This document shows, piece by piece, positions 6,397 to 32,082 of a stretch of 57,483 nucleotides of DNA (its first letter is position 1; each line of letters starts with the position of its first letter). The notes under the pieces are model-generated. The model was given only the letters and a program-made list of their open reading frames with translations, searched no databases and was not told the DNA's origin. The stretch is from a virus: the IMG/VR virus record IMGVR_UViG_3300028840_004876. One strand, given 5' to 3'. The translations under genes and the position numbers were made by a program.

Positions 6397-6822
6397 ATGG
6401 CTCGACCCACGCATGCGACGGTGCTCTCGTCTCACCAGAACTGGGACGCAGAGATCCGTGCCAACTTCAACCTCGTCTTCACGACGCCGATTCCGATCCC
6501 GCGCTACGCTAACTCTGCGGCGCTTCCGGCGGCTGCGGACTATGAGGACTGTCTTGCGATGACGGCCGACACCCACAAGCTCTACCACAGCGACGGGACG
6601 TCCTGGCTGTTGGTGGACAACGCTGCCGCGGGGTCGGCAATCGCGGACCTCAGCGTCAGCGCCGTCGCGGATCCGTCCGACTCGCCGACGACTGCGGACA
6701 GCCTGCGCGACGATCTCGTCGCGACGACGCTCGCGGATCTCGCGACGGCGCACGGCGAGATCGAGAGCAAGATCAACGCGATCCTCGCGGCGTTGCGCGA
6801 CCACGGGCTGATCGCAACGTAG
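6397..6822 (+). CDS. Hypothetical virion protein, last gene of the tail module (141 aa)
   Basis: GGAGA RBS upstream of the ATG. The C-terminal segment is EIESKINAILAALRDHGLIAT. I recognised no catalytic motif. Confidence 0.6.
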   Translation: MARPTHATVLSSHQNWDAEIRANFNLVFTTPIPIPRYANSAALPAAADYEDCLAMTADTHKLYHSDGTSWLLVDNAAAGSAIADLSVSAVADPSDSPTTADSLRDDLVATTLADLATAHGEIESKINAILAALRDHGLIAT

Positions 6823-6824
6823 CA

Positions 6825-6841
6825 TGGCACCAAAGGTGCCA
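6825..6841. promoter_or_regulatory. Palindrome TGGCACCAAAGGTGCCA, a putative operator
   Basis: 7-bp perfect arms with a 3-nt spacer. Confidence 0.5.
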
Positions 6842-7001
6842 GGGGTAACTGGCAAATGCGCCTGCGGCGGGAGCCGCCTGTCTCGGCAAGAAGAGCTTAG
6901 AATAATAGTACCTGGCTGAGGTCTACTTTCAATTCAACGTCCATACCTCGGGCGTTGGCGGTCCAGCCCCAGGGCGAGTTAGGCGCACTGTACGATACCC
7001 C

Positions 7002-7018
7002 TGGCACCAACGGTGCCA
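7002..7018. promoter_or_regulatory. Palindrome TGGCACCAACGGTGCCA, a putative operator
   Basis: 7-bp perfect arms with a 3-nt spacer. CTGAGAAAATCTC follows at 7020. Confidence 0.5.
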
Positions 7019-7052
7019 CCTGAGAAAATCTCGCCCGCCTACCGCTTTTCCC

Positions 7053-7081
7053 TGTACACCTACGCGTGGGTCGGGTACAAT
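7053..7081 (+). promoter_or_regulatory. Putative sigma70-type promoter: TGTACA, 17-nt spacer, TACAAT
   Basis: The spacing is exactly 17 nt. The downstream leader carries tcgattg...ccgcacgaacaggag, as in the early cassettes, and runs into ATG 7130. Confidence 0.5.
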
Positions 7082-7129
7082 GTCCCTTGGACATTGACAC
7101 TTTCGATTGCCGCACGAACAGGAGCCGAC

Positions 7130-7318
7130 ATGGAAAACACGAACGAGACGCACGACTGGCTGGCCGAGGCCGAAGCAGCTTTCGCGGCGAACCGCTGGAG
7201 CGACAGCGAGACGACGATCAGCGCTGAGCAGCTGGCGGAGGCCGAGGCGCCTCGCAAGCGGTCGTGCTTCCTTGACACGCTCGCCGAGGCAGTCGAGCGC
7301 TTCGGACTCGAGAGCTAG
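7130..7318 (+). CDS. Hypothetical protein (62 aa, acidic)
   Basis: The start was moved from track 7013 to ATG 7130, which follows gaacaggagccgac (RBS). It is the first gene after element A. Confidence 0.6.
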   Translation: MENTNETHDWLAEAEAAFAANRWSDSETTISAEQLAEAEAPRKRSCFLDTLAEAVERFGLES

Positions 7319-9499: not shown

Positions 9500-9852
9500 T
9501 GTCGCGCGTGTTCTTCATCACCGACGAGACCCGCTTCGACACCACACCGGCCGAGGAGTACGGCGAGCGCATGTTCGTCTACGATCGCACGAGCTACTGC
9601 CCGTGGAGTGACCCGGACAAGCTCGCGCGTGAGGCGCTGCGCTTCCTCAGCGAGAACCGGTTCGACCCGGAGTACGATCACATCGCGCTCACGGGTCCCG
9701 CGACGCCGCTCTCCGTGTTCACGGCCGTCGTCCTCGCGGCGTACGAGACCATCAACGTCCTCATCTTCAACGCGCGAGCCGAGAAGTATCGCCCGCGGAC
9801 GCTCAACGCCCGGCTCCCGTCGGGCGAGGTCCCCGGGGTGCCCCAGGGCTAG
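9499..9852 (+). CDS. Hypothetical protein (117 aa)
   Basis: TAATG stop/start overlap with the SNF2 gene, on the coding strand. Confidence 0.6.
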   Translation: MSRVFFITDETRFDTTPAEEYGERMFVYDRTSYCPWSDPDKLAREALRFLSENRFDPEYDHIALTGPATPLSVFTAVVLAAYETINVLIFNARAEKYRPRTLNARLPSGEVPGVPQG

Positions 9853-10005
9853 GGCACAGGTAATGCCTCCAGGGCCCCTAGGGCACCACTGGGGCCCTGG
9901 GGGCCACCTACGCGATGATTCATACCTGTCTAGCCCCACCCTGCGAGTATGGACGACCCAGGGCTGCCCCTGGACGACAGACGGGCCTTCATGAGAGGAG
10001 GGACG

Positions 10006-10569
10006 ATGGCCGAGCAGGATGTTGCCATGTTCGTGGACCGCGCGTTGCGCGCGGCCGATCGCGTGGAGGACGTCCACGTTGAGACGCTTCGCGCACTCAT
10101 CGAGCTCTCGGACACGGTGAAGAAGAACGAGGCGTCGCTCACGAGCGAGCAGCTCTGCGACGCGGGCTTCATGTGCCGCCAGATGGAACGGTGGGCGGAC
10201 GAGCTGCGCAAAGAGGCGAAGGCCAGACGCGAGCGCCTCGCGTACCTCATCGCGTATCGCGCGGCGCAGGCGGTCGCGACCAACCCTACGGCCGAGACCA
10301 CCGTGCGCGGGAAGTACGCGACCGGTACCCCGGACGTGAAGGTCGCTGCCGGACTGCCGAAGCGCGACACGCCCGAGTACGCGAAGCTCTGCGAGTGGCT
10401 CGGAGTCAGCGAGGAGGCGCAAAAGTCGGGCGCCATCCGCTTCCACTTCAACACGCTCATGGACATCGTGAGCGAGCGCATCGCGGCGGGGCAGGACGTC
10501 CCGCCGGGCATCACCAAGACGTACTCGATGTTCGTGACCAAGTTCATCGCGCGGCGTCGCGCGAAATGA
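10006..10569 (+). CDS. Hypothetical protein (187 aa), possibly an accessory factor for recombination or replication
   Basis: The start was moved to ATG 10006, which follows gagaggaggg (RBS). No motif recognised. Confidence 0.55.
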   Translation: MAEQDVAMFVDRALRAADRVEDVHVETLRALIELSDTVKKNEASLTSEQLCDAGFMCRQMERWADELRKEAKARRERLAYLIAYRAAQAVATNPTAETTVRGKYATGTPDVKVAAGLPKRDTPEYAKLCEWLGVSEEAQKSGAIRFHFNTLMDIVSERIAAGQDVPPGITKTYSMFVTKFIARRRAK

Positions 10570-10582
10570 GAGGAGGCCCACA

Positions 10583-11419
10583 GTGGCCAAGCGAGACGAC
10601 AAGCCGAAGGAAGTCGTAAAGGTCGAGGCGCCGCCGCAGTGGCTGGCCGAGGCCGCGGAGACGGACCAGTCCATCGAGGCGATGGCCGAGCACCGTGTGC
10701 TGCCCCGTCTCAAGGTCGTCCAGGGCATGAGCGACTCCGCGCTCAAGGACGCGGTGGGCGAGGGCGGCGTCGTCCTCACGCCGGGCAACGTTCTGGTCTG
10801 CTCCAGGGACGAGGGCTTCGAGTTCGTCCCGGTGTTCTTCTTCACCGAGTTCATCGAGATGTCCGACATCAACGACTCGGAGTCGCCCACGGTGCTCGAG
10901 CGCACCTTCGACGTCACGCACCCGCTCGCCGTCCGCGCGCGTGACGCGGACCAGTGGGAGCGCGACTACGGTCCCGAGGACTCGAAGGGCCGCGCGAAGT
11001 ACACGGCCCGTGCCTGCGAGGTCTTCAACTTCGTCGGCTTCCTCGACGGCGGCGACATCCCCGCCGAGCTCCACGGCGTGCCGCTGACGATCACGTTCGC
11101 GCGCGGCGAGTTCAACACCGGCCGGTCGTTCATCACGGCCATCACCATGCGGCGCGTCGGCGGGAAGATCGTCCCGCTGTGGGCGCAGCGCTGGGCGTTC
11201 ACCATCGGGTTCCGTGAGCGCGACTCGAAGAAGTGGTACGGTCTGGACGTTCGCAACCCGGCGCAGCCGTACATCAGCGAGGAGCAGGGCGCGATGTTCA
11301 AGGGCGCGCACGAGGAGTTCGCCGAGCTCTTCGAGAAGCAGCGCCTCAGCGTGGACCACGAGGACAAGCCCGCCGACGCCGAGATCGTCGAGGAGGGCGA
11401 GGACGAGTCGGAATTCTAG
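10583..11419 (+). CDS. Hypothetical protein, candidate ssDNA-binding protein with an acidic C-terminal tail ending in EF
   Basis: GTG start 7 nt after the gagaggagg RBS. The C-terminus is ADAEIVEEGEDESEF. The gene lies between helicase genes. The SSB call is an inference from the tail and the context only. Confidence 0.45.
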   Translation: MAKRDDKPKEVVKVEAPPQWLAEAAETDQSIEAMAEHRVLPRLKVVQGMSDSALKDAVGEGGVVLTPGNVLVCSRDEGFEFVPVFFFTEFIEMSDINDSESPTVLERTFDVTHPLAVRARDADQWERDYGPEDSKGRAKYTARACEVFNFVGFLDGGDIPAELHGVPLTITFARGEFNTGRSFITAITMRRVGGKIVPLWAQRWAFTIGFRERDSKKWYGLDVRNPAQPYISEEQGAMFKGAHEEFAELFEKQRLSVDHEDKPADAEIVEEGEDESEF

Positions 11420-11489: not shown

Positions 11490-14354
11490 GTGAATCTACT
11501 CGCCATCAACGCGCTCTCGGAACTCGAACGCGCTGGCTGGAAGTACGAGCCAGCGGGCGAGAACGAGGTCCGCATCCGTTGCCCTGCTCACGACGACGAT
11601 ACTCCGAGTGCGGCGGTCAACACCGCCAAGAACAAGTGGAAGTGTCACGCCGCGGGCTGTAAGGGGAGCGGTGACATCGTCACGCTGCTTGCGCTCATCA
11701 TGAGCGTTGAGCGCGCGACGATGCTCGCGGATCTCTCAACGCGTTACGAGCTTCAAGAGGTCAAGTCTATTCAGCCGTCTCGCATCGAGACGCTTCACGC
11801 GAAGATCTGGGACGCCGGTCCGTTGCTCACGTCACTACGCGAGCGCGGAGTTACAGACCCGATGATCCGTGCTGCGCGCCTAGGCTTCGCCAAGGGGCGC
11901 ATCACGATCCCGGTGTACGATCTCCAGCGTCGGATCATCAACGTGCGTCGCTACTTGCCGGGCGCGCCAGGCCCGAACAAGATGCGGAACACGAAGGGCT
12001 ACGGGCGTCCCGCCATCTACCAGCCTGAGCAGCTTGCGAAGTTCGACAAGGTAGTGTGGTGCGGCGGTGAGATGAAGGCGCTCGCCGCTGGCTGGTACCT
12101 CAAGCGCAAGGGTATCGGCGCGTTCTCGGTCACGGCTTCCGAGGGGGTATGGGAATCGCGGTGGAACGGTCTGCTCAAAGGCAAGACCGTGTACATCTGT
12201 ATGGATGTGGACCACCACGGTGAGCTCGCCGCGACCAAGGCCGCGCGTCTTATCGCACGCGCCGCCGCGGCCGTCTACATCTGCCGCATCCCGTTGGACG
12301 TCGAGAAGTATCCCAAGGGCGACCTCAACGACTGGATCGGCCACGAGGGAGCGCGCACCTCTGAGTTAGTACAGATGCTCGAGGACGCGGAGCTCTTCGA
12401 CCCGGCAGACCAGGTGACTGTCACCGGCGCCAACGGTGACGCCACCGACGTTCGCATACAAGAGGTCACGGACCCGCGCAACGTTGCGCGCCGCATCGCG
12501 TTCACAGGCGTCGTGTCTGCCCTCGCCGAGACGCCGTTCCTCGTGCCGAGTAAGCTCACGGCGTTCTGCGATCGCGACCAGCCGTTGTGTCACGCCTGCC
12601 CGATCAACCAGCTCGAGCCGTCGCGCAGCGACAACTCTGTTGAGGTCGAGGTGCCACCGACGGCGCTCGGCATGCTCATGCTGGTGGACCAGCCAGCCGG
12701 TCGGCAGCGTGAGGGAGTGATGGCAGCGCTCGGGGTACCGCGATGTAAGGTCGCGCAGTTCGTGCCGCAAGAGCACTCACGCGTGCACGACGTTCGGCTG
12801 GCGCCGACGTTGCTCATAACGTCCGAGGGCACCAGCAACCACGCGCAACCAGCGCTCATCGTGAACCACACGCCTGAGCTCAACGTCCCGTACCGCTTCG
12901 AGGGCGTCACGTACCCGCACCCTGCGAACCAGCAAGCCGTGCTGCTCATCGACAAGCTCGAGCTTGCTGAGGACAGCCTGTCATCGTTCGCGCCATCGGT
13001 CAGCGATCTCGAGACGCTCAAGATACTTCAGCCTCGGAGTTGGACGCTCGACTCGCTGAGCGACAAGCTCGACCAGCTATGGACAGACCTCGAGCACAAC
13101 GTGACCCGGATCTTCGGACGACGCGAGCCGCACGTGCTCTTCGATCTCGCGTACCATTCGCCGCTGGTCATCCAGGCGAACGGCCGCAACGTCCCTGGCT
13201 GGGTTAACGTCCTCATCGTCGGAGACAGCGGCCACGGCAAGTCCGAGATGGGTACGCAGATCTCGCAGCACTACGGTCTCGGCGAGAGAGTCGAGGCGAA
13301 GAACGCCACCGTGGCTGGCATACTCGGAGGCCTCTCGCAAATCGGGAATCGCTGGTTCGTACAGTGGGGTGTGATACCCACGCACGACCGGCGCCTCGTC
13401 ATCCTCGAGGAGATCAAGGGCGCGGACCCGGAGGTGATCGCGAAGCTCACCGACATGCGGTCCTCTGGCGTTGCTGAGCTTCAGAAGATCGAACGGCGTC
13501 GCGCACACGCGCGAACACGGCTCATCATGATCTCGAACCCGCGTGGCGCGAAGCGTCTCGAGAACTTCAACTTCGGCGTTGACGCCATCAAGGAGCTCAT
13601 CGGTGGGCTCGAGGACATCCGGCGTTTCGACGCCGCGTGCCTCATGTCCGGGAAGCAAGTCGACGTGGCGCAGATGACAGCGCTGGCCAGCGAGCCATCG
13701 AAGATCCCGAACGTGCTCACGCGCGACGTGGCCCGACGCGCCATCCTGTGGGCGTGGACACGAACGCCCGGGCAAGTCGAGTTCGAAGACACGACGTGGG
13801 AAATGATACGGGAGAAGACCCTTGAGCTCTGCGCCAAGTACACCGAAGCCATCCCGCTCATCGACCGCGGAACGACCCGCTTCAAGCTGGCTCGTCTCAG
13901 CGCTGCTCTGGCGGCGCGAACATTCTCCGTTCGCGACGATCCGCAGGTCATCGTGGTTCGACCCTGCCACGTCCAGTACATTGCCCGATTCCTTGACGCC
14001 CAGTACGGTGATCCTCATTTCGGGTACGCGGACTACTCACGAGCGCAAGTCCAAGCGGACGAGCTCGTAGACCCGAAGCTCATACAACGCCAGCTCATGG
14101 GAACCAAGTACCCGAAGGACCTCGTGAGCTCGCTGCTCTACCGTGACGAGATCACAACGCACGACTTCGAGGACTGGTGCGAGGTCGACCAGGAGTCCGC
14201 GCGTCGACTTGTCAGCTTCCTCGTTCGCAAGCGCGCGATGTTCCGCAAGAAGCGGCAGTACCGGAAGACCGCGGAGTTCATCGCGCTGCTTAAGACGCTG
14301 GCCGAAAGCGACCTGCCGGACACTGGCGAGTCGCACGAAGAAGACGAGTTCTGA
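11490..14354 (+). CDS. Primase-helicase fusion: CHC2 zinc finger and Toprim (DnaG-type) followed by an MCM-like AAA+ ATPase
   Basis: CPAHDDDTPSAAVNTAKNKWKCHAAGC (CHC2). WCGGEMKAL...ICMDVDHHGE...GDLNDW (Toprim). VLIVGDSGHGKSEM (Walker A). RRLVILEEIKG (Walker B). TRLIMISNP (sensor 1). EDIRRFD (Arg finger). The acidic tail is GESHEEDEF. Confidence 0.8.
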   Translation: MNLLAINALSELERAGWKYEPAGENEVRIRCPAHDDDTPSAAVNTAKNKWKCHAAGCKGSGDIVTLLALIMSVERATMLADLSTRYELQEVKSIQPSRIETLHAKIWDAGPLLTSLRERGVTDPMIRAARLGFAKGRITIPVYDLQRRIINVRRYLPGAPGPNKMRNTKGYGRPAIYQPEQLAKFDKVVWCGGEMKALAAGWYLKRKGIGAFSVTASEGVWESRWNGLLKGKTVYICMDVDHHGELAATKAARLIARAAAAVYICRIPLDVEKYPKGDLNDWIGHEGARTSELVQMLEDAELFDPADQVTVTGANGDATDVRIQEVTDPRNVARRIAFTGVVSALAETPFLVPSKLTAFCDRDQPLCHACPINQLEPSRSDNSVEVEVPPTALGMLMLVDQPAGRQREGVMAALGVPRCKVAQFVPQEHSRVHDVRLAPTLLITSEGTSNHAQPALIVNHTPELNVPYRFEGVTYPHPANQQAVLLIDKLELAEDSLSSFAPSVSDLETLKILQPRSWTLDSLSDKLDQLWTDLEHNVTRIFGRREPHVLFDLAYHSPLVIQANGRNVPGWVNVLIVGDSGHGKSEMGTQISQHYGLGERVEAKNATVAGILGGLSQIGNRWFVQWGVIPTHDRRLVILEEIKGADPEVIAKLTDMRSSGVAELQKIERRRAHARTRLIMISNPRGAKRLENFNFGVDAIKELIGGLEDIRRFDAACLMSGKQVDVAQMTALASEPSKIPNVLTRDVARRAILWAWTRTPGQVEFEDTTWEMIREKTLELCAKYTEAIPLIDRGTTRFKLARLSAALAARTFSVRDDPQVIVVRPCHVQYIARFLDAQYGDPHFGYADYSRAQVQADELVDPKLIQRQLMGTKYPKDLVSSLLYRDEITTHDFEDWCEVDQESARRLVSFLVRKRAMFRKKRQYRKTAEFIALLKTLAESDLPDTGESHEEDEF

Positions 14355-14365: not shown

Positions 14366-15064
14366 ATGCCTGAGAGATTGGAGACGCGACGGCTGTTGCG
14401 CCACCGAGCGGCGGCGACGTCACGACCTTACATGGCGGCGCAGCTGCCCGGTGGAGAGGTGCTCGTGTTCGACACGCGGCCCTCCGGCGGTGGCCCGTTC
14501 TTCCCGGACATGGACGAGGACCGGGCGGCAGCGTACGCGCTGTCGATGTGCCGCGCGTGGAATGACGCGCTCGGTCGCGAGGACACCACACCACACACGG
14601 ATCTCGTACGACGCTTCCACGAGCGCCACCACTTCGGGATCGACCGTAACCTCTGCGAGGAAGGCGGCGATCACGACATGTTCCCCGCTGCGATGCTCAC
14701 GGCCATGGCGATGCAGGTGCTGGCGATGTCCGAGACGCTCGCGGCGTACGCCAGGAAGAGCGAACCGAACGGCGACTGGCGCATGAGTCGCGCGCACAAC
14801 ATGACCGAGGAACTCGCCGAGGTGCTCTTGGCCATGGCGGCCAAGGATCCTGTCGCGCTGCTCGACGGCCTGGGTGACTTGGCGTATGTCACGCATGGCA
14901 CCGCGGTCGTGTACGGGCTTCCGCTGGAGCGCGGGTTCCGGGAGATCCATCGGTCGAACATGACCAAGGACCCCGCGCCGGAAGGCGAGGTCACCCTGCA
15001 CCCGGTCAAGGGCGAGAACTACGAGCCGCCGGATCTCGCCGGTTGCTTCGAGGTGACGGAATGA
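14366..15064 (+). CDS. All-alpha NTP pyrophosphohydrolase (MazG / PRA-PH-like)
   Basis: MTEELAEVLLAMAAKDPVALLDGLGDLAYVTHGTAVVYGLPLERGFREIHRSNMTK matches the EExxE...D...D...sNmsK pattern of MazG-like phage enzymes. A gagaggag RBS lies upstream. Confidence 0.7.
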   Translation: MPERLETRRLLRHRAAATSRPYMAAQLPGGEVLVFDTRPSGGGPFFPDMDEDRAAAYALSMCRAWNDALGREDTTPHTDLVRRFHERHHFGIDRNLCEEGGDHDMFPAAMLTAMAMQVLAMSETLAAYARKSEPNGDWRMSRAHNMTEELAEVLLAMAAKDPVALLDGLGDLAYVTHGTAVVYGLPLERGFREIHRSNMTKDPAPEGEVTLHPVKGENYEPPDLAGCFEVTE

Positions 15065-16107
15065 GCCAGGTCAACCACGCCGCGGATCGCAAGGGCGCGG
15101 CGCTGTGCCTCGACGAGGCGTGGCACTACGCGGCGGCCGAGCTGTGGGACCACGCCGCTCACGCGACGTCGCGAGACGGTGACATCTTCGCGGAGCTTCC
15201 GGCCGCGCGTCTCATGCTCATGAACACCCGCGCCGTGTGGATGATGGGGCCGCGCAGCCCTTCACCGCTGTACGCTGCGGGCGAGCTCATGTGGTACCTC
15301 AGCGGGTCGGAGGATGGCGAGTTCATCTGCCACTATGCTCCGAGTTACGAGCGGTTCCTCAACGACGGCGTCGCGCTCGGCGCGTACGGGCCGCACATTC
15401 GTGGCCCGCTCAAGAGCGTGGGTGGCTTCGACCCGCTCATGCGGATCGCGTCGCTTCTCACAGCGAAGCCCGATACCCGGCAGGCCGTGTTGCCGATCTA
15501 CGGCTATCACGACCTCCAGGCTGCGGGCTCGCTGGCGAACGACATACCCTGCACACTCGGTCTTCAGTTCCTCGTGCGCGATTCGAGTCTCAACGTGATC
15601 TCGACCATGCGCTCGAACGACCTATGGCAGGGTCTGCCGTACGACATCTTCGCGTTCGCGACCATCAACGTTCTGCTGGCGCACCACCTCGACCTCTCGC
15701 CAGGATGGATCTGCCACCAGGCGGGATCGCTTCACCTGTACGAGCGCCACGCTGAGGCGACGCACCGCGCGATACTCAGCGGCCAAGACATGTACGCGCG
15801 ACCGCCGAAGCTGGGGTGGTGGACGCGTCGCGAGCCGGGCCGGCTGTTCCACGATCTCGCCGCCGCGGTCGCGCTCGAGCGTCGCTTTCGCGAGGATCGC
15901 GAGGTGCCGCTGGCCGAAGCGATCTCGTGCATCCAGCAGAGTCTCGGGGCGCGAACGCTGCTCGGCACCATCGTCGCGCTCTGCTACGCGAACCGCCGGG
16001 CCTTCAACATCGACGAAGCGAACGCGATGAACGTCGTCATCCCCGACTGGCTCATCGCCAAGGTCATCAACTGGCAGGGCCGTCAGCGAGCGTGGAGGAA
16101 GTCATGA
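15061..16107 (+). CDS. Thymidylate-synthase-family enzyme with the cytosine-type Asp. Predicted dCMP C5-hydroxymethylase or dCMP C5-methylase.
   Basis: ATGA overlap with the upstream stop. DIPCTLGLQFLVRDSSLNVISTMRSNDLWQGLPYDIFAFATI...GSLHLYERH aligns without gaps to E. coli ThyA [41 protein letters not shown]...GDTHLYSNH. Asp replaces Asn177. Confidence 0.75.
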   Translation: MSQVNHAADRKGAALCLDEAWHYAAAELWDHAAHATSRDGDIFAELPAARLMLMNTRAVWMMGPRSPSPLYAAGELMWYLSGSEDGEFICHYAPSYERFLNDGVALGAYGPHIRGPLKSVGGFDPLMRIASLLTAKPDTRQAVLPIYGYHDLQAAGSLANDIPCTLGLQFLVRDSSLNVISTMRSNDLWQGLPYDIFAFATINVLLAHHLDLSPGWICHQAGSLHLYERHAEATHRAILSGQDMYARPPKLGWWTRREPGRLFHDLAAAVALERRFREDREVPLAEAISCIQQSLGARTLLGTIVALCYANRRAFNIDEANAMNVVIPDWLIAKVINWQGRQRAWRKS

Positions 16108-16652
16108 TCACGCTCATCATCGAAGGCGCAGACAACCTCGGCAAGACCACGGCCGCGAAGAGGCTCGCGGCGCTGCACCTCGATCGGACCGGGGAGGCTA
16201 TCCCCGTCATCCATCACGGCCCGCCAACGGACCCCGTGATGGAATACTCGACCGAGCTCCTGCGCCCTGCCATACACGACCGTGGCCATCTTGGCTGGCT
16301 TGTGTGGCAAGGCATGCTGGCGCAAAGCGGGACGGAGTTCGACCGCCTCGCGATGGAGCAGCTGGTCCGGGTGCTGCGCGTCGTCCATCGTGTGATCGTC
16401 GTGTGCCTGTACGCCGATGACGACTGGTACTGCGAGCGCATCGCAGAGTACGACGATCGCGATGAGCTCATGCCGCCCAACATTCGACGGGTCGCGAACC
16501 GCGCGTTCGCGCAGCTCTGCTGGTCGCGCGACGGTAACTGTGAGAAGTACGTCGACATCCCTTACAACGTCAGCGTCAGCGGGTTCCCCAGCGATGCGAC
16601 CTTGAACCGCTGGCTGGACCGCTGCTCCCTGCGCCAGAGTGAGGCGCTCTGA
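16104..16652 (+). CDS. P-loop kinase, thymidylate-kinase-like (dNMP kinase; a DNA-level kinase is an alternative)
   Basis: ATGA overlap with the upstream stop. LIIEGADNLGKTTAAKRLA (P-loop, Tmk-like) and AIHDRGHLGWLVWQ (DRY..S..AYQ-like). Confidence 0.65.
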   Translation: MITLIIEGADNLGKTTAAKRLAALHLDRTGEAIPVIHHGPPTDPVMEYSTELLRPAIHDRGHLGWLVWQGMLAQSGTEFDRLAMEQLVRVLRVVHRVIVVCLYADDDWYCERIAEYDDRDELMPPNIRRVANRAFAQLCWSRDGNCEKYVDIPYNVSVSGFPSDATLNRWLDRCSLRQSEAL

Positions 16653-18681
16653 GGTCACAGTGATAGAGCTTGAGACCCACGACGGTCGAGTCGTCAATCT
16701 CGTTGAGCACGCCCGTGAGCTGCCAGAGTTCACGGGCGTTCAGCGGGTCTACGCCGACTGCGAGACCACGTCCGGCGACCCGAAGGTGAAAGCCTTCAAG
16801 CCGTACGGTGGGCATCGCATCGCTGGCGTGGCCGTGCTGCGCGACGACGAGGCGACGGCGTGGTACGTCCCGGTGCGCCACAAGCATGGGCGCAACATCC
16901 CGGCGCAGGCGGTGCGTCGCTGGCTCCGAGACATGATGACCGTCCCGGAGTGGGTGAACCACAACGTCAAGTTCGACGCGCACTTTGTCGCGTGCGCCGG
17001 CCGTGGCGACGAGCTCGTCTTCCCTGGCCGCATGATCGACACCGCCACGCTCGCCAAGTGCCACGACACGGATCGCATGGGTCACGGGCTCAAGGCGGTA
17101 TGCGCCGACTGGCTCGAGCAAGATCTCTCTGAGCAGGACGAGGTCGAGGCGTACCTGAAGAACGAGAAGACCAAGGACTACGGGGAGCTGCCAGCGGATC
17201 TCTGCGGGCGGTACGCCGGCCAGGACGTCTTGATGAACCGCGAGCTCATGCGGTTCCTCGAGGACCAGCGGCCGGAACAGATGCGCGACACGTGGGAGAC
17301 CGAGATCCTTCTCACGCCTGTCCTCTTCGACATCGAGCGAGCGGGCATGCGTGTGAACGATCTCGCCGTGAAGAAGCTCAAAGTCAAGACGCTGCGGTCG
17401 ATACTCGGGGCGCAGCAGGAGATCGTGGACCTCACTGACGGCCGCGAGTTCGTCGACTCTAGCAAGAACCTGTACGACCTCATCGTGAACGTGCTCGGTC
17501 TTCCGGTCCTCAAGTGGAACACGGACCCCGAGTCGAAGGAGCGTGGCTCGCCGTCCTTCGACAAGGAAGCGCTTGAGCTGTACGGTATGCACCCCGAGGT
17601 GCTTCACCAGCCGAGGAACGCGCGCGTGATCGAGCTCATCAAGTCGGCGCGCGCTGAGTCGCACTTCCTCAGCAACTACTTGGAGGTCTTCGGTCAGGCG
17701 GTTGAGACCGGTGGCTTCGTTCATCCGAGCTTCAACCAGCTCATTCGGACGGGGCGCATGAGCGCCTCGGACCCGAACGTGATGGGGATGAGCAAGGCCG
17801 CCAAGGATCTCATCATCCCCGACGACGACGAGTACGGCATCCTCACTGCGGACGCAGAGCAGATTGAGTTCCGTCTCATCGTCCACTACATCCGTGATGC
17901 CGATGCGATCGCAGCGTACGCGCGTGACCCGGACACGGACTTCCACATGTGGGCGGCGCGGCTGTGCGAGGTCGAGCGCACGCCCGCGAAGACTCTCAAC
18001 TTTGCGATGGGCTACGGCGCAGGGAAGAAGCGCGTCGTGTCGCTGCTGCTCACGGACCCCACGATCATGCACGACGTCGGCGAGATCATCGCCCAGCAGA
18101 TCGAGGAGGGTCGCGTACCCGAACGCCTACGCGCACAGGCGTACCACCGGCTGTGCGAGCGTCGCGCGCAGGGCGTGTACACGCGGTACCACGAACGCCT
18201 GCCCGGGATCAAGAGGACCTCGCGAGCTGCGGCGCAGAAGTGCATCATGCGTGGGTACGTCTTCAACCCGTTCGGCCGTCGCCGTCACTTGCCGCCTCGC
18301 GCTGCGCACAAGGCCTTCAACACCATCGTCCAGGGCGGTGCGATGGACATCATCAAGCGGCGGATGATTCGGTTGGCTCCGCGTTACAACTCGTGGGTGC
18401 GGAACAGCGACATCCGTCTCTTCGGAAACGTCCACGATGAGCTGCCGCTTCACGGGCCACGCGAGGCGCTGGAGGACCCGAAGATCCAGGCGCGCATCCA
18501 CGCGGTGCTCGAGACCACAGACATCGACTTCCGGGTTCCGTTCACCTGGGAGGCCGGCTACTCACCGCTGTCGTGGAAGGCGGCGGGAGCGAAAGAGAAC
18601 GTCATCGACAAGATCCGGCTGCGGAAGATCGCCCTCGAGGAGGGCTTCCTCGGCCCGCAAATGCGGAGGTACTACGAGTGA
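16639..18681 (+). CDS. Family A DNA polymerase with a 3'-5' exonuclease domain
   Basis: YADCETT (ExoI), NHNVKFDAHF (ExoII), YAGQDV (ExoIII), ADAEQIEFRLIVHY (motif A), RTPAKTLNFAMGYGAG (motif B), NVHDEL (motif C). The start is GTG 16639 or GTG 16660. Confidence 0.93.
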   Translation: MRRSEVTVIELETHDGRVVNLVEHARELPEFTGVQRVYADCETTSGDPKVKAFKPYGGHRIAGVAVLRDDEATAWYVPVRHKHGRNIPAQAVRRWLRDMMTVPEWVNHNVKFDAHFVACAGRGDELVFPGRMIDTATLAKCHDTDRMGHGLKAVCADWLEQDLSEQDEVEAYLKNEKTKDYGELPADLCGRYAGQDVLMNRELMRFLEDQRPEQMRDTWETEILLTPVLFDIERAGMRVNDLAVKKLKVKTLRSILGAQQEIVDLTDGREFVDSSKNLYDLIVNVLGLPVLKWNTDPESKERGSPSFDKEALELYGMHPEVLHQPRNARVIELIKSARAESHFLSNYLEVFGQAVETGGFVHPSFNQLIRTGRMSASDPNVMGMSKAAKDLIIPDDDEYGILTADAEQIEFRLIVHYIRDADAIAAYARDPDTDFHMWAARLCEVERTPAKTLNFAMGYGAGKKRVVSLLLTDPTIMHDVGEIIAQQIEEGRVPERLRAQAYHRLCERRAQGVYTRYHERLPGIKRTSRAAAQKCIMRGYVFNPFGRRRHLPPRAAHKAFNTIVQGGAMDIIKRRMIRLAPRYNSWVRNSDIRLFGNVHDELPLHGPREALEDPKIQARIHAVLETTDIDFRVPFTWEAGYSPLSWKAAGAKENVIDKIRLRKIALEEGFLGPQMRRYYE

Positions 18682-19928
18682 AGAAGGAAGACGGGACCGC
18701 AATCGGAGTCCACGCGTTCGCGGGTGGCCTCACACTGGGCATGGACCGCGTGTTCAACGTCAAGGGTCAACTCGAAGTCTTCGACCTCGGCTGCGACAGC
18801 GTGCGTCACAATCTCGGGATCCCCGTCGTCCGTTGCGACGACGCGTCGTGGATGGACTCGCCGCCCGAGTGGGCCGAGAAGGCGCAGATCGTCTTCGGCA
18901 ACCCGCGGTGCACGGCGTTCAGCTGTCTCAACCGCGGGTGCGGGAAAGACGGGTACGGGCCCGAGGGCCGCGCGACCAAGGACGTTCGGCAGGCCGTCGA
19001 CTTCGTGGAGCGCGTGCGTCCGCACGTGTTCGTGTGGGAGTCCGTTCAGCCAGCGATCACCGCGGGCCTTCCGCTCGTCCTCGACATCGAGGAGCGCCTC
19101 GCCAAGCTGCGGTACTCGCCGACGCGGCTGCTGCTCAACGCAGCGACGTGGCACAACTCGCAGAACAGGCGTCGCTTCTTCCACGTGTTCACGAAGCCTG
19201 GCATCCACTTCTGGCCCGACGTCCCGGAGGTCCCGAAGAAGTGGCTCACCGTCCGCGAGGTGATCGAGGACCTCGCTGAGCACGAGGTGACCAGCGACCA
19301 TCAGTGGAACTACGAGACACCGGAGGACGCGGCGCAGGACGAGGTGCTCAACCACCACTGGTGGGACGACCCGTGCTTCACGCGTCTCGTCTGCTCGCTC
19401 GTCCCGCCAGGGCGCTCGATGAATGACGTGCCGTGGGACGACCTGCTCAAGATCCAGGCGGAGGGATTCAGCGGTTACGTCGACGGCTACCTCAGAGGCG
19501 CAGGCTCGTTCTCGCGTCACGCCGCGCGACGTCTCCATCCCGACGGCGCGAGCCGCGTCGTGTACGGTGGCTGGCACATGACGATCCACCCGTGGCTCGA
19601 CCGCGGCGTCACCGTGCGTGAGACCGCGAGGCTCATGGGGTTCCCCGACGACTGGGTCTTCCTTGGTCCGGCCGGTGGCTACGCGCAGATCGGGAAGGGC
19701 GTCGTGCCGGCCGTCGCGGAGTGGCTCGCGTGGCAGATCCTTCGAGCCATCGACTCGCCGAACCCGACCAAGCGCAAGAAGGAGTGGCGGTTCAACACGC
19801 GGACGCGGATGGTCGAGGAGCGCCGCGTGCCGGATGGCGAGGTGCGCACGTTCGATCTCACGCGCATGACTGCGAAGGTGCCGCGCCCGAAGCTCGCGCC
19901 TCGACGGAGCGTGTTCGAAGGCTACTGA
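18678..19928 (+). CDS. DNA (cytosine-5) methyltransferase-like protein with atypical catalytic motifs
   Basis: GTGA overlap with the polymerase stop. HAFAGGLTLG (motif I), FGNPRCTAFS (motif IV, PRC instead of PC), FVWESV (motif VI, ESV instead of ENV), SQNRRRFF (motif VIII), TVRETARLMGFPDDW (IX), GKGVVPAV (X). Confidence 0.8.
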   Translation: MKKEDGTAIGVHAFAGGLTLGMDRVFNVKGQLEVFDLGCDSVRHNLGIPVVRCDDASWMDSPPEWAEKAQIVFGNPRCTAFSCLNRGCGKDGYGPEGRATKDVRQAVDFVERVRPHVFVWESVQPAITAGLPLVLDIEERLAKLRYSPTRLLLNAATWHNSQNRRRFFHVFTKPGIHFWPDVPEVPKKWLTVREVIEDLAEHEVTSDHQWNYETPEDAAQDEVLNHHWWDDPCFTRLVCSLVPPGRSMNDVPWDDLLKIQAEGFSGYVDGYLRGAGSFSRHAARRLHPDGASRVVYGGWHMTIHPWLDRGVTVRETARLMGFPDDWVFLGPAGGYAQIGKGVVPAVAEWLAWQILRAIDSPNPTKRKKEWRFNTRTRMVEERRVPDGEVRTFDLTRMTAKVPRPKLAPRRSVFEGY

Positions 19929-19957
19929 GAAAAACTCTGAGTTAGCGGAGATTGCTG

Positions 19958-19986
19958 TTGACGGCCCATGGCCCGTGGTGTAGAAT
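19958..19986 (+). promoter_or_regulatory. Early promoter P1: TTGACG, 17-nt spacer, TAGAAT
   Basis: Exact 17-nt spacer. CTGAGAAAAACTCTGAG lies upstream at 19925. The conserved leader aacagtcgattgaaaccacgggccgcacagaacaggag follows. Confidence 0.7.
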
Positions 19987-21925: not shown

Positions 21926-21945
21926 ACATTGCGTATCCGCAATGT
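21926..21945. promoter_or_regulatory. Perfect 20-bp palindrome ACATTGCG-TATC-CGCAATGT just upstream of the RBS of the sugar operon
   Basis: 8-bp arms with a 4-nt spacer. It ends 15 nt before ATG 21960. Confidence 0.5.
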
Positions 21946-21959
21946 CGAGAGGAGGAAGC

Positions 21960-22559
21960 ATGCATCAACTCAGAGTTGCGAGCGTCGCCCCCTTCGAGGG
22001 AGTGAAGCTCGTCAAGTACGGTCGCTTCGACGACGAGCGCGGGTACTTCGCCGAGCCGTTCCGCGCCAGCCAGATGGCCGACGTCGTCGGCGCGCCCATC
22101 GTCCAGATGAACGAGTCGCTGTCGCACGCGGGCGTACTCCGAGGTCTCCACTTTCAGTGGGCGCCCTTCATGGGCAAGCTCGTTCGCGTGATCGACGGGT
22201 ACATGGTCGACATCGTGTGCGACATCCGCGTCAACTCGCCGACGTACGGCGTGGTCCAGATGGTCCGCATGCTCCCTGGCAGCGGATGGATCTGGGTCCC
22301 GCCGGGTTTCGCACACGGGAACGCGTTCCCGGTCCGCACGCGCATTCAGTACCTGTGCACGGGCGAGTACTCGCAAGAGACGGAGGCCTGCCTGTCGCCA
22401 CTCGGGACGGACCTCGACTGGTCCCTCTGCGACCCCGCCGTGCTCGAGGTCGTGCGCGCGTGCCCGACCATCTCGATGAAGGACCGCGACGGCTACTCGG
22501 CGCAAGAGTGGCTGGCCGACGAGCGGTCGATGAACTTCCTGTATGAGGACCTCCGATGA
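21960..22559 (+). CDS. rmlC: dTDP-4-dehydrorhamnose 3,5-epimerase-like cupin (RmlC family)
   Basis: FDDERGYFAEPF, VLRGLHFQ, KLVRVIDGYMVDIVCDIRVNSPTYG and WVPPGFAHGN. The start was moved to ATG 21960, which follows gagaggaggaagc. Confidence 0.85.
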   Translation: MHQLRVASVAPFEGVKLVKYGRFDDERGYFAEPFRASQMADVVGAPIVQMNESLSHAGVLRGLHFQWAPFMGKLVRVIDGYMVDIVCDIRVNSPTYGVVQMVRMLPGSGWIWVPPGFAHGNAFPVRTRIQYLCTGEYSQETEACLSPLGTDLDWSLCDPAVLEVVRACPTISMKDRDGYSAQEWLADERSMNFLYEDLR

Positions 22560-23281
22560 CCCGCGACGCCAGCGTCCTCTTCACCGGCGGCTCGGGCCTC
22601 TTGGGCGCCGCCATGCGAGCCAGGCGCCCCGGCCTCAGGTACCCGCCTAGGGGCGCGTTCGATGTAACCCGCCCGTCGGCAATGCGAAACTACGTGGAGG
22701 CCCTTAGCCTGTCCTGTATCGTCCACGCAGGGGCCTTTACGTCCCCACCACGGGTAGACGCTGACCCTGCCCGGGCGATCGAGGTCAACGTGGCGGGCAC
22801 CGCGCACGTGGCCGCGCTGTGCGCGGCGCGGAAGCTGCGCCTCATCTACATCTCGACGGACTACGTCTTCCGTGGCACGCGAGGACCGTACGCCGAGGAC
22901 GATCCCGTGTACCCCGTCAACTGGTACGCGTGGTCGAAACTCGGAGGTGAGTGCGCCGCTCGTCTCTGTCCGGGCAGCCTCATCATCCGCACCTCGTTCG
23001 GACCGGACGAGTTCCCGTACGAGAAGGCGTTCTACGATCAGCTCACGTCGCGGGTCTCGGTGAGCGTGTTCGCAGACGCGCTGTCGCGACTCATCGACTC
23101 GGACGTGTCCGGAGTCCTGCACGTGGGCCACTACGAGGGCCGCTCCGTCCTGGCGTTCGCGCGGGAGCAAGGCGCGGCGCCGGAGCAAGTCACTCGCTTC
23201 GACATGCCGTTCGCTGTTCCGTATGACACCACGCTCGACGTCGACCGATGGCTCGAGCTCAACGAGGAAGGACGTGTGTGA
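22556..23281 (+). CDS. rmlD: dTDP-4-dehydrorhamnose reductase-like SDR (RmlD family, short form, 241 aa)
   Basis: ATGA overlap with the upstream stop. LFTGGSGLLGAA (Rossmann), YISTDYVF and NWYAWSKLGGE (YxxxK). Confidence 0.7.
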   Translation: MTRDASVLFTGGSGLLGAAMRARRPGLRYPPRGAFDVTRPSAMRNYVEALSLSCIVHAGAFTSPPRVDADPARAIEVNVAGTAHVAALCAARKLRLIYISTDYVFRGTRGPYAEDDPVYPVNWYAWSKLGGECAARLCPGSLIIRTSFGPDEFPYEKAFYDQLTSRVSVSVFADALSRLIDSDVSGVLHVGHYEGRSVLAFAREQGAAPEQVTRFDMPFAVPYDTTLDVDRWLELNEEGRV

Positions 23282-24246
23282 TGCGCATCGTACTCTGCGG
23301 AGGTGGGGGCTTCATCGGCTCGGCGCTGGCGCCCGAGCTCGTCCAACGCGGCCACGACGTCACGGTGCTCGACCTCTTCTGGTTCGGGCGCGCGATGCCG
23401 AGCGACGTCACGGACGTGAAGCAAGAGCTCTTCGACTGCTGCGGCGACGACTTCGAGAATGCGGACGTCGTCGTGTTCCTGGCCGGCCTGTCGAACGACC
23501 CGATGGCCGAGTTCAGCCCGGCTCTGAACTTCAAGTACAACGCCGCGCTCCCTGCGCTGCTCGCGTTTCTCGCGCGTGGCATCGGCGTGCGTCGCTTCGT
23601 CTACGCCTCGAGCTGCTCCGTGTACGGGTGGGCGCCCGACGAGGAGCAGACCGAGAGCGGCACCATCGACTGCGACTACCCGTACGGCATCGCGAAGCTT
23701 CAGGGCGAGGCCGGCGTTTCTCGGATGCTGTGCGACGGAGAGTTCGAAGTCGTCGCGCTGCGGAAGGGAACCGTCTGTGGTCACAGCCCGCGCCCGCGTG
23801 CGGACCTCATCGTGAACGCGATGATCAAGTCCGCGCTCACCGAGGGCGTCATCTACATCAACGACGCCACGACGTGGCGTCCGCTACTCAGCGTCCGCGA
23901 CGCCGTGCGTGCGTACGTGCGTGCGATCGAGGGACGCGCCAGCGGCGTGTTCAACGTCGCGAGCGTGAACGCGACCGTGCGCGAGGTCGCGGACGACGTG
24001 CTCGCGACGCTGTGCCTGTTCAAGTACGGCGCCGGCGTCGAGATCGTGCACCGCATGCGGAAGGACCGCCGCAGTTACCGCGTGAGCACCGCGTCGTTCC
24101 GCGCCGTGTTCGGCAACTGCTTCAGCGACGGCGTACGCGACATGGCCGCGAGCGTCCTTCAGAACCTCGAGGCGTACGGGGACTTCAGCGACCCCGCGCT
24201 GAGCAACATCGAGACGTTCAAGGCCCTCGGAGAAAATCTCAGTTAA
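23281..24246 (+). CDS. NAD-dependent sugar epimerase/reductase (extended SDR). It lacks the TDE dehydratase triad.
   Basis: TGATG overlap with the upstream stop. LCGGGGFIGSAL, YASSCSVYG and YPYGIAKLQGE (YxxxK). The sequence is SCS where 4,6-dehydratases have TDE. Confidence 0.8.
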   Translation: MRIVLCGGGGFIGSALAPELVQRGHDVTVLDLFWFGRAMPSDVTDVKQELFDCCGDDFENADVVVFLAGLSNDPMAEFSPALNFKYNAALPALLAFLARGIGVRRFVYASSCSVYGWAPDEEQTESGTIDCDYPYGIAKLQGEAGVSRMLCDGEFEVVALRKGTVCGHSPRPRADLIVNAMIKSALTEGVIYINDATTWRPLLSVRDAVRAYVRAIEGRASGVFNVASVNATVREVADDVLATLCLFKYGAGVEIVHRMRKDRRSYRVSTASFRAVFGNCFSDGVRDMAASVLQNLEAYGDFSDPALSNIETFKALGENLS

Positions 24247-30415: not shown

Positions 30416-31441
30416 ATGAGCTGTACCTACTACTGTGACGGGTGTGGGAAGAAGCTCGGTTCGCACGTCGAGGGCGTGCTGAAGGCCGAGCACCGCACTC
30501 GCAACGGGCGCACCCTTTCCGTGTTCGTTCAGCCACAGCTGGTCAACGGCGAGCACTGGTGCCACGACTGCCAGCGCGCGGCCATCGCGTCCACGGGAGA
30601 CGGGCGCAAGCAGCCGATGGCAGAGCGTGTCGACCTGCCCGTGGTTGAGAAGCGCGGCGAGGAGCTGCCGCTGTCGCGGTATCGCAACAGCGACTGGCGC
30701 GTGAGCGTGATCAACGACATCATGAATAGCGCTGCCGACGCTGCGCCGCAGTACGGCATCGACAAGATGATCGCGCTCGAGTTGCGGGAGCGCGCGCAGC
30801 TCGCGTTGCTCGACGCGTGGGTCGCGGGCGTCAGACATCAGCTCTCGCTTCGCGATGACTTCGGCGCCGACGAGAAAGCGTACGCCGGTGAGGCGCTTCA
30901 CGAGCTCGCGAGGGTCGTCACGGGTCAGATCACCGACGTCAAGGCTGCGCTGAAGGGCGCGTACAACACCGGACTCGGAGTCGGCGTCAGGCGCAACTAC
31001 AACGATCTCGAGGCTGCGCGCGAGCAGCGGAACAAGTACAAGGAACGGCGCGACGCCGTGTACCGGGTGTTCCGCAGTGTCATCGCCGCGCTCGGCTTCG
31101 AGGACATGCCCGTCGAGACGCTTCACGCGGTACAGCTGGACCAGTGGCTGGCGCGAAGCGAGCCGCGTCTTCGCGAGCTGGTCGAGACCCGTGATAGGCT
31201 GCGCTCGGCGAATCGCACCCTCAGTCGTCGTCGGCGTGAGCGCGACGCCGCGGTCGAGGACCTCAGCACCGTCGCGAGGATCATCGAGTGCGAAGACCAG
31301 CAGCACATCATCGAGCGGGCGCGCCAGCTGCGGTCTGCGAAGTCGACGGCGTGGGACATGCTCAGCACGCTGCGAACGAAGATTCAGCATGGCGCGCCGC
31401 GCGATCAGCTGCTCGAGAACATCGCCGAGGTGCTCGGATGA
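30416..31441 (+). CDS. Zinc-ribbon plus coiled-coil protein (341 aa)
   Basis: The start was moved to ATG 30416, which follows gagagaggaggaagtg. CDGCGKK...CHDC. Confidence 0.55.
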   Translation: MSCTYYCDGCGKKLGSHVEGVLKAEHRTRNGRTLSVFVQPQLVNGEHWCHDCQRAAIASTGDGRKQPMAERVDLPVVEKRGEELPLSRYRNSDWRVSVINDIMNSAADAAPQYGIDKMIALELRERAQLALLDAWVAGVRHQLSLRDDFGADEKAYAGEALHELARVVTGQITDVKAALKGAYNTGLGVGVRRNYNDLEAAREQRNKYKERRDAVYRVFRSVIAALGFEDMPVETLHAVQLDQWLARSEPRLRELVETRDRLRSANRTLSRRRRERDAAVEDLSTVARIIECEDQQHIIERARQLRSAKSTAWDMLSTLRTKIQHGAPRDQLLENIAEVLG

Positions 31442-32082
31442 ATGTCATCGAGCCGAGCTACCAGATCGAGTACGTCACCGGCACGGAGTGTGACGATGAC
31501 CCCGTTCAGTCGCCCCTCGCTCTCATCGAGCGCGCGGCCCGTACGTGCTACAAGTCCGAGGCCCGCATCGCGCCCGGTACTGCCGAGAAGCTGACGCGTC
31601 ATCTCATCAAGCGCGGGCATCACGCGATGCTCGAGTTCGGGTTGGTGGTCGTGCGGTTCATCGTCGACCGCGGCGTCAGCCACGAGCTGGTCCGCCACCG
31701 CCTCTGCTCGTTCGCGCAGGAGTCGACGCGCTTCTGTAACTACAGCGGCGGTGTCACGTTCATCCGACCGCCGTGGCTAGACCAGGGCGGTTCCACGTCG
31801 GCAAGTGGTCGCTGGCGGCACGCCATGTCGAGAGCGGAGTCCGACTACCTCGCCTTGCTCCGCGGAGGTTGGACGCCGCAGCAGGCGCGCAGCGTTCTGC
31901 CGAACAGCACGAAGACCGAGATCGTGGTCGGCGCCAACTTCCGTGAGTGGCGAACGATCTTCGGTCTCCGCGTGGCGAAGGCCGCGCACCCGCAGATGCG
32001 GCAGGTCATGGTGCCCTTGCTCGAAGAGGTCAAGACCATCGTTCCCGTTCTCTTCGACGACGTTGAGGTGCCTGATGCTTGA
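31438..32082 (+). CDS. thyX: Flavin-dependent thymidylate synthase ThyX
   Basis: ATGA overlap with the upstream stop. VRHRLCSFAQESTRF is an exact RHRxxSxxxxSxR ThyX signature. Confidence 0.9.
   Translation: MNVIEPSYQIEYVTGTECDDDPVQSPLALIERAARTCYKSEARIAPGTAEKLTRHLIKRGHHAMLEFGLVVVRFIVDRGVSHELVRHRLCSFAQESTRFCNYSGGVTFIRPPWLDQGGSTSASGRWRHAMSRAESDYLALLRGGWTPQQARSVLPNSTKTEIVVGANFREWRTIFGLRVAKAAHPQMRQVMVPLLEEVKTIVPVLFDDVEVPDA

Follow-up and report, generated by a model that had tools for sequence, protein, structure and literature searches.

A phage gene cassette predicted to make 5-hydroxymethyl-dCTP ahead of DNA replication

We have analysed a cluster of four genes in the phage contig IMGVR_UViG_3300028840_004876, a stretch of 57,483 nt (the window in what follows) with 65% GC and practically every gene on the + strand. 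The cluster encodes a MazG-like nucleotide pyrophosphohydrolase, a homologue of the thymidylate synthase ThyA, a small P-loop protein and a family A DNA polymerase (PolA), four + strand open reading frames (ORFs) that lie in the order given by an initial annotation, which had been made from the sequence and had read them as a pathway to deplete, modify, phosphorylate and incorporate a nucleotide. The four genes are the following:

14366..15064, + strand: MazG-like (PRA-PH family) all-alpha NTP pyrophosphohydrolase, 232 amino acids (aa); PF01503, phrog_671
15061..16107, + strand: ThyA-superfamily enzyme, predicted dCMP hydroxymethylase, 348 aa; PF00303, active-site signature
16104..16652, + strand: predicted Tmk-superfamily P-loop kinase, 182 aa; motifs, AlphaFold2 (AF2) fold, family profile
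16660..18681 (alternative start GTG 16639), + strand: family A DNA polymerase with a 3'-5' exonuclease domain; PF00476, PF01612, phrog_17

The cassette, its junctions and its ThyA homologue

The ATGA overlaps that had been described for the first two junctions (15061-15064 and 16104-16107) are exact, and a Shine-Dalgarno sequence precedes each downstream start. The third junction had been presented as a 14-nt overlap (16639/16652), which requires PolA to start at GTG 16639. Better support was found for the in-frame GTG 16660, which has GAGG 5 nt upstream and coincides with the N-terminus of the PolA homologue in a related locus (L004); the public gene call for this contig also opens PolA there, 8 nt past the stop of the P-loop gene, with a product of 673 aa. 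The junction is probably a 7-nt gap, and the overlap an artefact of start-codon choice. Furthermore, the coupled chain extends past the four genes that had been proposed, since a fifth gene, for a C5-DNA methylase, is joined to the polymerase gene by a GTGA overlap at 18678-18681 that links the PolA stop to GTG 18678, with GGAGG upstream. At the other end, 11 nt separate the stop of a primase-helicase gene from the MazG-like start. Because 4-base overlaps are habitual in this genome (10 of 58 junctions), the ATGA and GTGA overlaps alone are weak evidence for a functional unit. The comparison with related phage genomes that the initial annotation had recommended was more informative, the gene order of the cassette being retained in dozens of loci that share just 25-46% identity, and it is conserved far beyond chance.

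The ThyA homologue matches PF00303 at 1e-22 (80.8 bits, cut-off 24.3), and in a PDB search its top match, at 6e-28, was the mildiomycin CMP 5-hydroxymethylase MilA (PDB 5B6D/5JNH), thymidylate synthases appearing only at ~1e-12. We took the diagnostic residues of these enzymes from the literature (PMC13326640, PMC5175136, PMC8670742) and read them off alignments, in E. coli numbering. The signature obtained, EYRDCTRSDDHY (positions 58, 94, 126, 143, 146, 147, 166, 167, 169, 177, 207 and 209), is the same as that of T4 gp42 at all 12 positions, and Glu58, Tyr94, Cys146, Arg166, His207 and Tyr209 are all retained. The protein had been called an Asp-type ThyA homologue and, in fact, its LPYDIF stands opposite E. 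coli LPFNIA, with Asp at the position of E. coli Asn177, a replacement that goes with cytosine and not uracil as the substrate (PMC8670742, PMC13326640). Its NDIPC motif places an Asp at position 143 (Cys minus 3), as in T4 gp42, MilA and M6 gp58, together with Thr147; an acidic residue replacing Leu143 has been related to water access and to a hydroxymethyl over a methyl product (PMC13326640). MilA, the closest solved relative, shares Asp143, Asp177 and Thr147 with the window enzyme. However, the ribonucleotide preference of MilA depends on Ala176 and Lys133' (MRAND, PDSKR), and the window enzyme carries the deoxyribose-type residues Ser167 and Arg126 (MRSND, PDTRQ). The dUMP hydroxymethylase of phage M6, used as a control, departs from the window signature at positions 147 and 177, as would be expected of it.

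All these residues predict 5-hydroxymethyl-dCMP (5hm-dCMP) as the product, and not dTMP, 5-hydroxy-dCMP (5ho-dCMP), 5-methyl-dCMP (5m-dCMP) or hydroxymethyl-CMP. The assignment of the ThyA homologue as a dCMP hydroxymethylase that makes 5hm-dCMP is well supported by them, with the caveat that the residue rules are correlative and not established for the clade of the window enzyme. Moreover, the phage encodes a separate flavin-dependent thymidylate synthase, ThyX, and therefore the ThyA homologue is unneeded for dTMP.

A different C5 product, either 5m-dCMP as in Xp12 or 5ho-dCMP as in RB69 and DLP3, would leave the remaining pathway unchanged, and we consider it very unlikely. It draws on the fact that the Asp177 enzymes of cytosine-modified contigs include confirmed 5m-dCMP and 5ho-dCMP synthases, on the variation of position 143 among the relatives (Thr in L005, L006 and L161, Leu in L097) and on the C5-methylase and sugar-nucleotide genes present downstream in the window. 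However, methyl-forming enzymes have a hydrophobic residue at 143 and His147, and the window has the Asp143/Thr147 pair of T4 gp42 and MilA. Similarly, the tested 5ho-dCMP synthases (RB69 gp48 / DLP3 gp80 type) all carry Asn169, but the window enzyme, like every relative read, keeps Asp169.

The P-loop kinase family and its gene neighbourhoods

No Pfam or NCBIfam model matched the 182-aa P-loop protein, and its match to phrog_761 ('thymidylate kinase') was weak (7.5e-5). The peptides cited in the initial annotation for a Tmk-like kinase, IIEGADNLGKTT and HDRGHLGWLVWQ, were found in the translation; the first of them and HDRGHLG are the window versions of EGxDxxGKxT and DRFHxG, motifs that are (nearly) invariant across 74 diverse members of the family and that we take to be hallmarks of the Tmk / deoxynucleoside-kinase group. 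The family is large: an exhaustive profile search returned 1,083 clusters (defined at 50% identity) at E <= 1e-3 and 94 at <= 1e-30, nearly all of 165-210 aa, overturning the tiny family of 10 clusters that a word-index search had indicated.

The AF2 model of the window kinase has a mean predicted local distance difference test (pLDDT) score of 86.6. When it was compared by Foldseek with the PDB, the nearest structures were YorR of phage SPbeta (PDB 2AXP/3KB2) and Tmk, at a template modelling (TM) score of 0.5-0.63, and in BFVD they were small phage 'thymidylate kinases', at TM up to 0.71. The family profile covered the whole of YorR with an E-value of 1.3e-9 and matched Plasmodium Tmk at 1e-4; PF02223 was weakly matched by 33 of the 74 members (best 9e-7) and phrog_761 by 37. 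YorR and the thymidylate kinases agree with the window protein in fold and in having EGxDxxxK(S/T)T and DRF motifs, but the similarity of the family to Tmk is marginal (E ~1e-4), and the window protein itself reaches no Pfam model. A literature search on the function of YorR returned nothing. According to fold and profile, which back the superfamily named in the initial annotation, the protein would be a divergent member of the thymidylate-kinase superfamily. Kinship to T4 gp1 was rejected (HHalign probability 0.2%), and so was kinship to the 5-hydroxymethyluridine DNA kinases (5-HMUDK), as the alignment to M6 gp54 had a probability of 22% and covered 46 columns around the Walker A motif alone.

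The family is virus-restricted and essentially absent from cellular genomes. A scan of 185,579 species genomes with a 10-sequence alignment gave a single match, on a 59-kb phage-like contig binned in a Robiginitomaculum metagenome-assembled genome, where the order is MazG-ThyA(D177)-kinase-deaminase-PolA.

We selected 69 IMG/VR loci by the kinase family alone and then profiled their neighbours. Many of the contigs in this sample are related or near-duplicate, and fewer independent events stand behind the counts than their size suggests: a ThyA homologue is present in 49 loci (directly adjacent in 42), a MazG-like gene in 33, a deaminase in 33 and a related PolA in 42. Either a ThyA homologue or a MazG-like gene was found in 63 of the 69 loci, and in at least four of the six with neither the contig ends at or near the kinase gene. 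When all loci with the kinase are taken together, the window and the relatives found first among them, Asp177 is present in 55/55 readable ThyA homologues, and the 12-residue signature identical to that of T4 in 49/56. These loci span two architectures, with identities down to ~25%. In six of them (L024, L026, L029, L033, L035 and L045) the MazG-like gene and the kinase gene are adjacent, and the ThyA homologue lies 2-3 kb downstream of PolA, ~5-6 kb from the kinase. Another locus, L097, has a MazG-like gene (6806-7342), a ThyA homologue (7707-8672) and a weak kinase match (8663-9274); its ThyA homologue is Leu143/His147/Asp177, the signature expected for a dCMP methylase (5-methylcytosine, 5mC). 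Xp12 was sought by tblastn with a methylase-type ThyA, which returned ordinary thymidylate synthases, and PaMx74 was compared in its place. Like other phages of the PaMx74 / Xp12 type (NTP-PPase, Asp177 ThyA and dCMP deaminase), PaMx74 has a block of pyrophosphohydrolase, ThyA and deaminase; however, its ThyA is of the N143/P147/D177 type, and no member of the kinase family was found in it.

By its gene association the kinase would be linked to the chemistry of dCMP substituted at C5, mostly with a hydroxymethyl group. The heterologous incorporation of modified dC into DNA has been carried out with a co-expressed phage deoxynucleoside monophosphate (dNMP) kinase (PMC13326640; bioRxiv 10.1101/2024.12.05.627091). 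Since modified dC reaches DNA with the help of such a phage enzyme, a reason appears for keeping the kinase gene beside the hydroxymethylase.

The initial annotation had also offered a kinase acting at the DNA level, like the 5-HMUDK. In this case, the P-loop protein would phosphorylate 5-hydroxymethylcytosine (5hmC) in the polymer, creating a leaving group for a further, unrecognised hypermodification, and we regard this as highly improbable. The 5-HMUDK (M6 gp54, ViI gp67 and others) are also P-loop kinases of small size from phages, with genes close to that of a ThyA-family hydroxymethylase in a related type of genome, the size of M6 gp54 (187 aa) is near that of the window protein, the strict association with a hydroxymethylase-type ThyA fits a hydroxymethyl substrate in either nucleotide or DNA, and several conserved neighbours (the orf378 and orf197 families) have no assigned function. 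However, the ThyA partner of the 5-HMUDK is of the Asn177 type, homology is limited to the Walker A motif (M6 gp54 being the only one compared), and the fold and the EGxDxxGK and DRxH motifs are those of nucleoside monophosphate (NMP) kinases. Furthermore, the 5-HMUDK pathway requires an aGPT-Pplase or an amino-acid:DNA transferase (AADT) (PMC8989533). No transferase of these kinds and no pyridoxal-phosphate or radical-SAM partner was found among the window ORFs between 7 and 37 kb, the region ahead of the virion-gene ORFs that was scanned with Pfam, PHROGs and NCBIfam, nor among the profiled neighbourhood families. A DNA-level role would also leave the pathway without any 5hm-dCMP kinase. Equally improbable, in our opinion, is a 5-phosphomethyl-cytosine intermediate for an unrecognised transferase, made by action on 5hmC in DNA in place of, or in addition to, free 5hm-dCMP. 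Such a route would parallel, for cytosine, the hypermodification of thymidine; its remaining steps might fall to the orf378 or orf197 families, or might use a 6-deoxyhexose supplied through the RmlC, RmlD and epimerase genes described below. The association, the NMP-kinase fold and the lack of a DNA-transferase partner in the scanned region favour a nucleotide-level 5hm-dCMP kinase.

The MazG-like protein, the polymerase and the surrounding genes

The MazG-like protein matches PF01503 with 44.1 bits (cut-off 21.3) and phrog_671 at 4e-20, and the residues E148, E149, E152, D167 and D171 of its EExxE ... DxxxD metal-binding motif are invariant. Its core spans residues ~79-232; among the relatives examined, the N-terminal ~75 aa were found in the window alone. 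This extension (14366-14590) has a coding-like GC content at third codon positions (0.81) and a strong AGGAG Shine-Dalgarno sequence before ATG 14366, and it is missing even from the closest relative, L014. The protein had been proposed to be a dCTPase of the DCTPP1 type that would act as gp56 does in T4. At the level of homology neither parallel stood: a PDB sequence search (E up to 1) returned DR2231 entries only, at 2e-6, with no DCTPP1 match provided that the PDB set includes DCTPP1 structures, and HHalign gave a probability of 0.1% against T4 gp56. A homologue search with the core domain was uninformative (7 matches). When we selected 78 loci by the MazG-like family alone, neither a ThyA homologue nor a kinase or deaminase gene was present within 7 kb in 64 of them. 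The link to the cassette is confined to the sub-family that matches full-length, including the FHxKHGFP helix, and whose gene immediately precedes that of the ThyA homologue or of the kinase; in MazG-family loci with a nearby ThyA homologue, Asp177 was found in 10 of 11. A dCTPase role for the MazG-like protein is a reasonable inference from its position, the synteny of the sub-family and the co-occurrence of PF01503 and PF00303 in the MetaGPA metavirome contigs discussed below.

PolA matches PF00476 with 132 bits, PF01612 with 29 bits and phrog_17 at 6e-84, and is the replicative polymerase of the window. It also aligns end to end with the NCBIfam model of DpoZ, at 160.8 bits for a cut-off of 500, which would place it in the same broad phage PolA clade as DpoZ, below the cut-off for assignment as DpoZ itself.

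The other features of this region are listed here:

11490..14354, + strand: primase-helicase (zinc-ribbon/Toprim primase and MCM-like P-loop); Pfam and PHROG matches
18678..19928, + strand: C5-cytosine DNA methyltransferase homologue; PF00145 at 3e-18
19935..19986, + strand: weak hairpin (19935-19950), then a sigma-70-like promoter match (19958-19986); consensus scan
31288..32082, + strand: ThyX, flavin-dependent thymidylate synthase; PF02511 at 2e-44

In L004, L006 and L009 the cassette is immediately preceded by the equivalent of the primase-helicase gene, with a product 45-52% identical to that of the window. The transcription unit to which the cassette belongs probably ends in the segment 19935-19986, although the promoter consensus scan found 2 promoter-like sites for 1.2 expected. 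The Pfam match of ThyX begins at residue 75 of its ORF, the first 154 nt of which overlap a preceding ORF of 449 aa, and its translation probably begins at a point beyond 31441; ThyX replaces the dCMP deaminase of most relatives.

The C5-methylase keeps motifs IV (PRC), VI (ESV) and VIII (QNRRR) and the catalytic Cys. A methylase of this kind lies beside the cassette in 8 of the 69 IMG/VR loci and in the deposited phage MW202657 (L009). All the methylase-bearing loci (L013, L009, L030, L038, L043, L050, L055, L059 and L068) keep the catalytic Cys and ESV, and in four of them the methylase is directly upstream of the kinase; motif IV is PRC in the window and L013 and PPC in the others.

About 2 kb beyond the C5-methylase lies an overlapping trio (21942-24246) that encodes RmlC (dTDP-4-dehydrorhamnose 3,5-epimerase), a shortened RmlD-like reductase and an NAD-dependent epimerase/dehydratase; neither RmlA nor a recognisable glycosyltransferase was seen. 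We rejected these sugar genes as conserved partners of the cassette, as they are missing from the flanks of the relatives. Searches of the unassigned ORFs with Pfam, PHROGs and NCBIfam found no enzyme that would decorate 5hmC (glycosyl- or carbamoyl-transferase, TET, aGPT-Pplase).

Two further families recur near the cassette. The product of orf378, P0163 (333 aa, ~33331-34332, in an ORF that opens at 33196; phrog_14998), combines a Rossmann-like N-terminus with an invariant GSGWWRxRY motif, and its relatives lie 1-3 kb from the kinase/ThyA cassette in L046, L059, L093, L100, L102 and L131. P0163 had no Pfam match and its profile found nothing in the PDB. A possible resemblance to T4 beta-glucosyltransferase was rejected (HHalign 0.4%, no PDB match), and the AF2 model, made from a two-sequence alignment, is unusable (pLDDT 34.7). 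Homologues of orf197 (26537-27130, 197 aa) were found in 13 cassette loci, including the Robiginitomaculum-binned contig; they lie downstream of PolA, at a distance that ranges from some hundreds of bases to ~2.5 kb.

With respect to the rest of the genome, a second assembly of the same phage in SRR6963312 has 56,435 bp, compared with 57,483 bp for the window, which is consistent with a complete, possibly terminally redundant phage genome. The tail genes (DUF2460, BR0599 and Rcc01698_C), the SNF2 helicase and the Pam3 gp32/gp34-like genes, which occupy 96-6386 and 7319-11419, resemble those of M6/YuA-type Pseudomonas siphoviruses, M6 and the window being ~26% identical in the SNF2 helicase and PolA. 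Phage M6 (L010) carries a uracil-type hydroxymethylase cassette at the equivalent site just upstream of PolA, suggesting that base-modification modules are exchanged at this site.

Proposed pathway and comparison with known systems

We consider it likely that the cassette serves the pre-replicative synthesis of 5hm-dCTP, so that PolA would build 5hmC into the progeny DNA. The MazG-like enzyme would convert dCTP to dCMP and PPi, lowering the pool of competing dCTP and feeding the next enzyme. The ThyA homologue would then convert dCMP, methylene-tetrahydrofolate and water to 5hm-dCMP, a step strongly supported by its active-site residues. According to its fold, its motifs and its exclusive association, the Tmk-like kinase would phosphorylate 5hm-dCMP to 5hm-dCDP, and it may also take dTMP; host kinases are not expected to phosphorylate 5hm-dCMP. 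We assume that host nucleoside-diphosphate kinase would complete 5hm-dCTP and that the family A polymerase would incorporate it, dTMP being supplied separately by ThyX. The genes are packed (overlaps or gaps of <=11 nt) and would be co-transcribed, favouring co-ordinated expression with the replication genes. The reading of the initial annotation as supply, modification, phosphorylation and incorporation is the best explanation of the ThyA signature, the Tmk fold and the Asp177 neighbours; its DCTPP1 attribution is left without support.

Several points weigh against this reading besides the redundancy of the sampled loci. The function of the cassette is deduced from its sequences, from a predicted fold and from the neighbouring genes. 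For the MazG-like protein the closest solved relative, DR2231, is presumably dUTP-specific, and the broad MazG/PRA-PH family, with most of its loci lacking ThyA homologues, looks like general phage housekeeping. The kinase lies below Pfam detection and its nearest named relatives are dTMP kinases, and a plain dTMP-kinase role is possible. Finally, an intact and coupled C5-methylase looks redundant if every cytosine is 5-substituted, which suggests incomplete replacement of C or some other role of the methylase.

The points on the MazG-like protein and the kinase would also fit a general nucleotide-metabolism cluster, in which a dTMP kinase would serve the dTMP derived from ThyX or from the deaminase and the MazG-like protein would be a dUTPase or a house-cleaning pyrophosphatase. 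Cytosine modification would be confined to the ThyA homologue, and host kinases would handle 5hm-dCMP. The named relatives of the kinase family are thymidylate kinases only, and, together with the ThyX of this phage, the dCMP deaminase genes that stand next to the kinase in its relatives agree with this explanation. Nevertheless, we think it unlikely. An ordinary Tmk should also adjoin ThyA homologues of the Asn177 type, or none, but Asp177 was observed in every readable neighbour; the kinase family is practically missing from cellular genomes; and published assays add a phage dNMP kinase for modified dC. Moreover, a dual specificity for 5hm-dCMP and dTMP, as annotated for T4 gp1, would merge this explanation with the synthesis of 5hm-dCTP that we favour.

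The logic and the steps of the proposed pathway are those of T4 (gp56 dCTPase/dUTPase, gp42, gp1 dNMP kinase, gp43 and the cd deaminase), and a gene of the dCMP-deaminase family is also found in relatives of the window. However, there is no detectable homology of gp56 and gp1 to the MazG-like protein and the kinase, the polymerase is of family A in the window and of family B in T4, and the pathway genes are contiguous and coupled in the window and scattered in T4. Unlike T4, the window has a C5-DNA methylase attached to the pathway, and no glucosyltransferase was found. The same principle applies to the 2-aminoadenine cluster of cyanophage S-2L (MazZ, PurZ, DatZ and DpoZ): there, too, a competing dNTP is cleared away and the product enters DNA through a family A polymerase, MazZ being presumably the MazG-like supplier of a monophosphate substrate. 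However, the S-2L pathway is a purine pathway, PolA of the window falls below the DpoZ cut-off, and no PurZ was seen in the window.

A closer counterpart has been described by MetaGPA, in two papers from one group. Thymidylat_synt, PRA-PH, dCMP deaminase and DNA_pol_A domains (the last with an exonuclease domain) co-localise on metavirome contigs that were experimentally found to be cytosine-modified, and the ThyA homologues of these contigs are mostly Asp177 (PMC8670742; bioRxiv 10.1101/2024.12.05.627091). The window has the domain set (PF01503, PF00303 and DNA_pol_A), the order and the Asp177 rule of this cassette and evidently belongs to the same population. However, it lacks the deaminase (PF00383) and has ThyX and a C5-methylase, and many of the characterised MetaGPA examples make 5mC. 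These papers describe no kinase encoded by the cassette, and the window kinase is invisible to Pfam; the eLife 2021 text (PMC8670742) never mentions 'kinase', and T4 gp1 was supplied in the other work (bioRxiv 10.1101/2024.12.05.627091). The closest deposited phage, MW202657, has an 'ntP-ppase-like protein' and a 'pyrimidine hmase' in the order of the window, the kinase ORF being unannotated. The outline of the cassette (PRA-PH, ThyA, deaminase and PolA on cytosine-modified contigs) is already published; what appears to be new, within the literature that we searched, is the connection of the kinase family with this cassette.

If the proposed pathway is true, the kinase family would fill the absent phosphorylation step of the MetaGPA cassette. 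The production of 5hm-dCTP in vivo could then draw on a small native enzyme, and the prediction of phage genomes with modified cytosine would gain a second marker gene. The coupling of the methylase to PolA leads one to ask whether the replacement of C is complete in such phages. The window would represent a further uncultured siphovirus that swaps C for 5hmC before replication, and the 5hmC would affect its sensitivity to restriction, CRISPR and type IV defence systems, as well as the behaviour of its DNA in sequencing and cloning.

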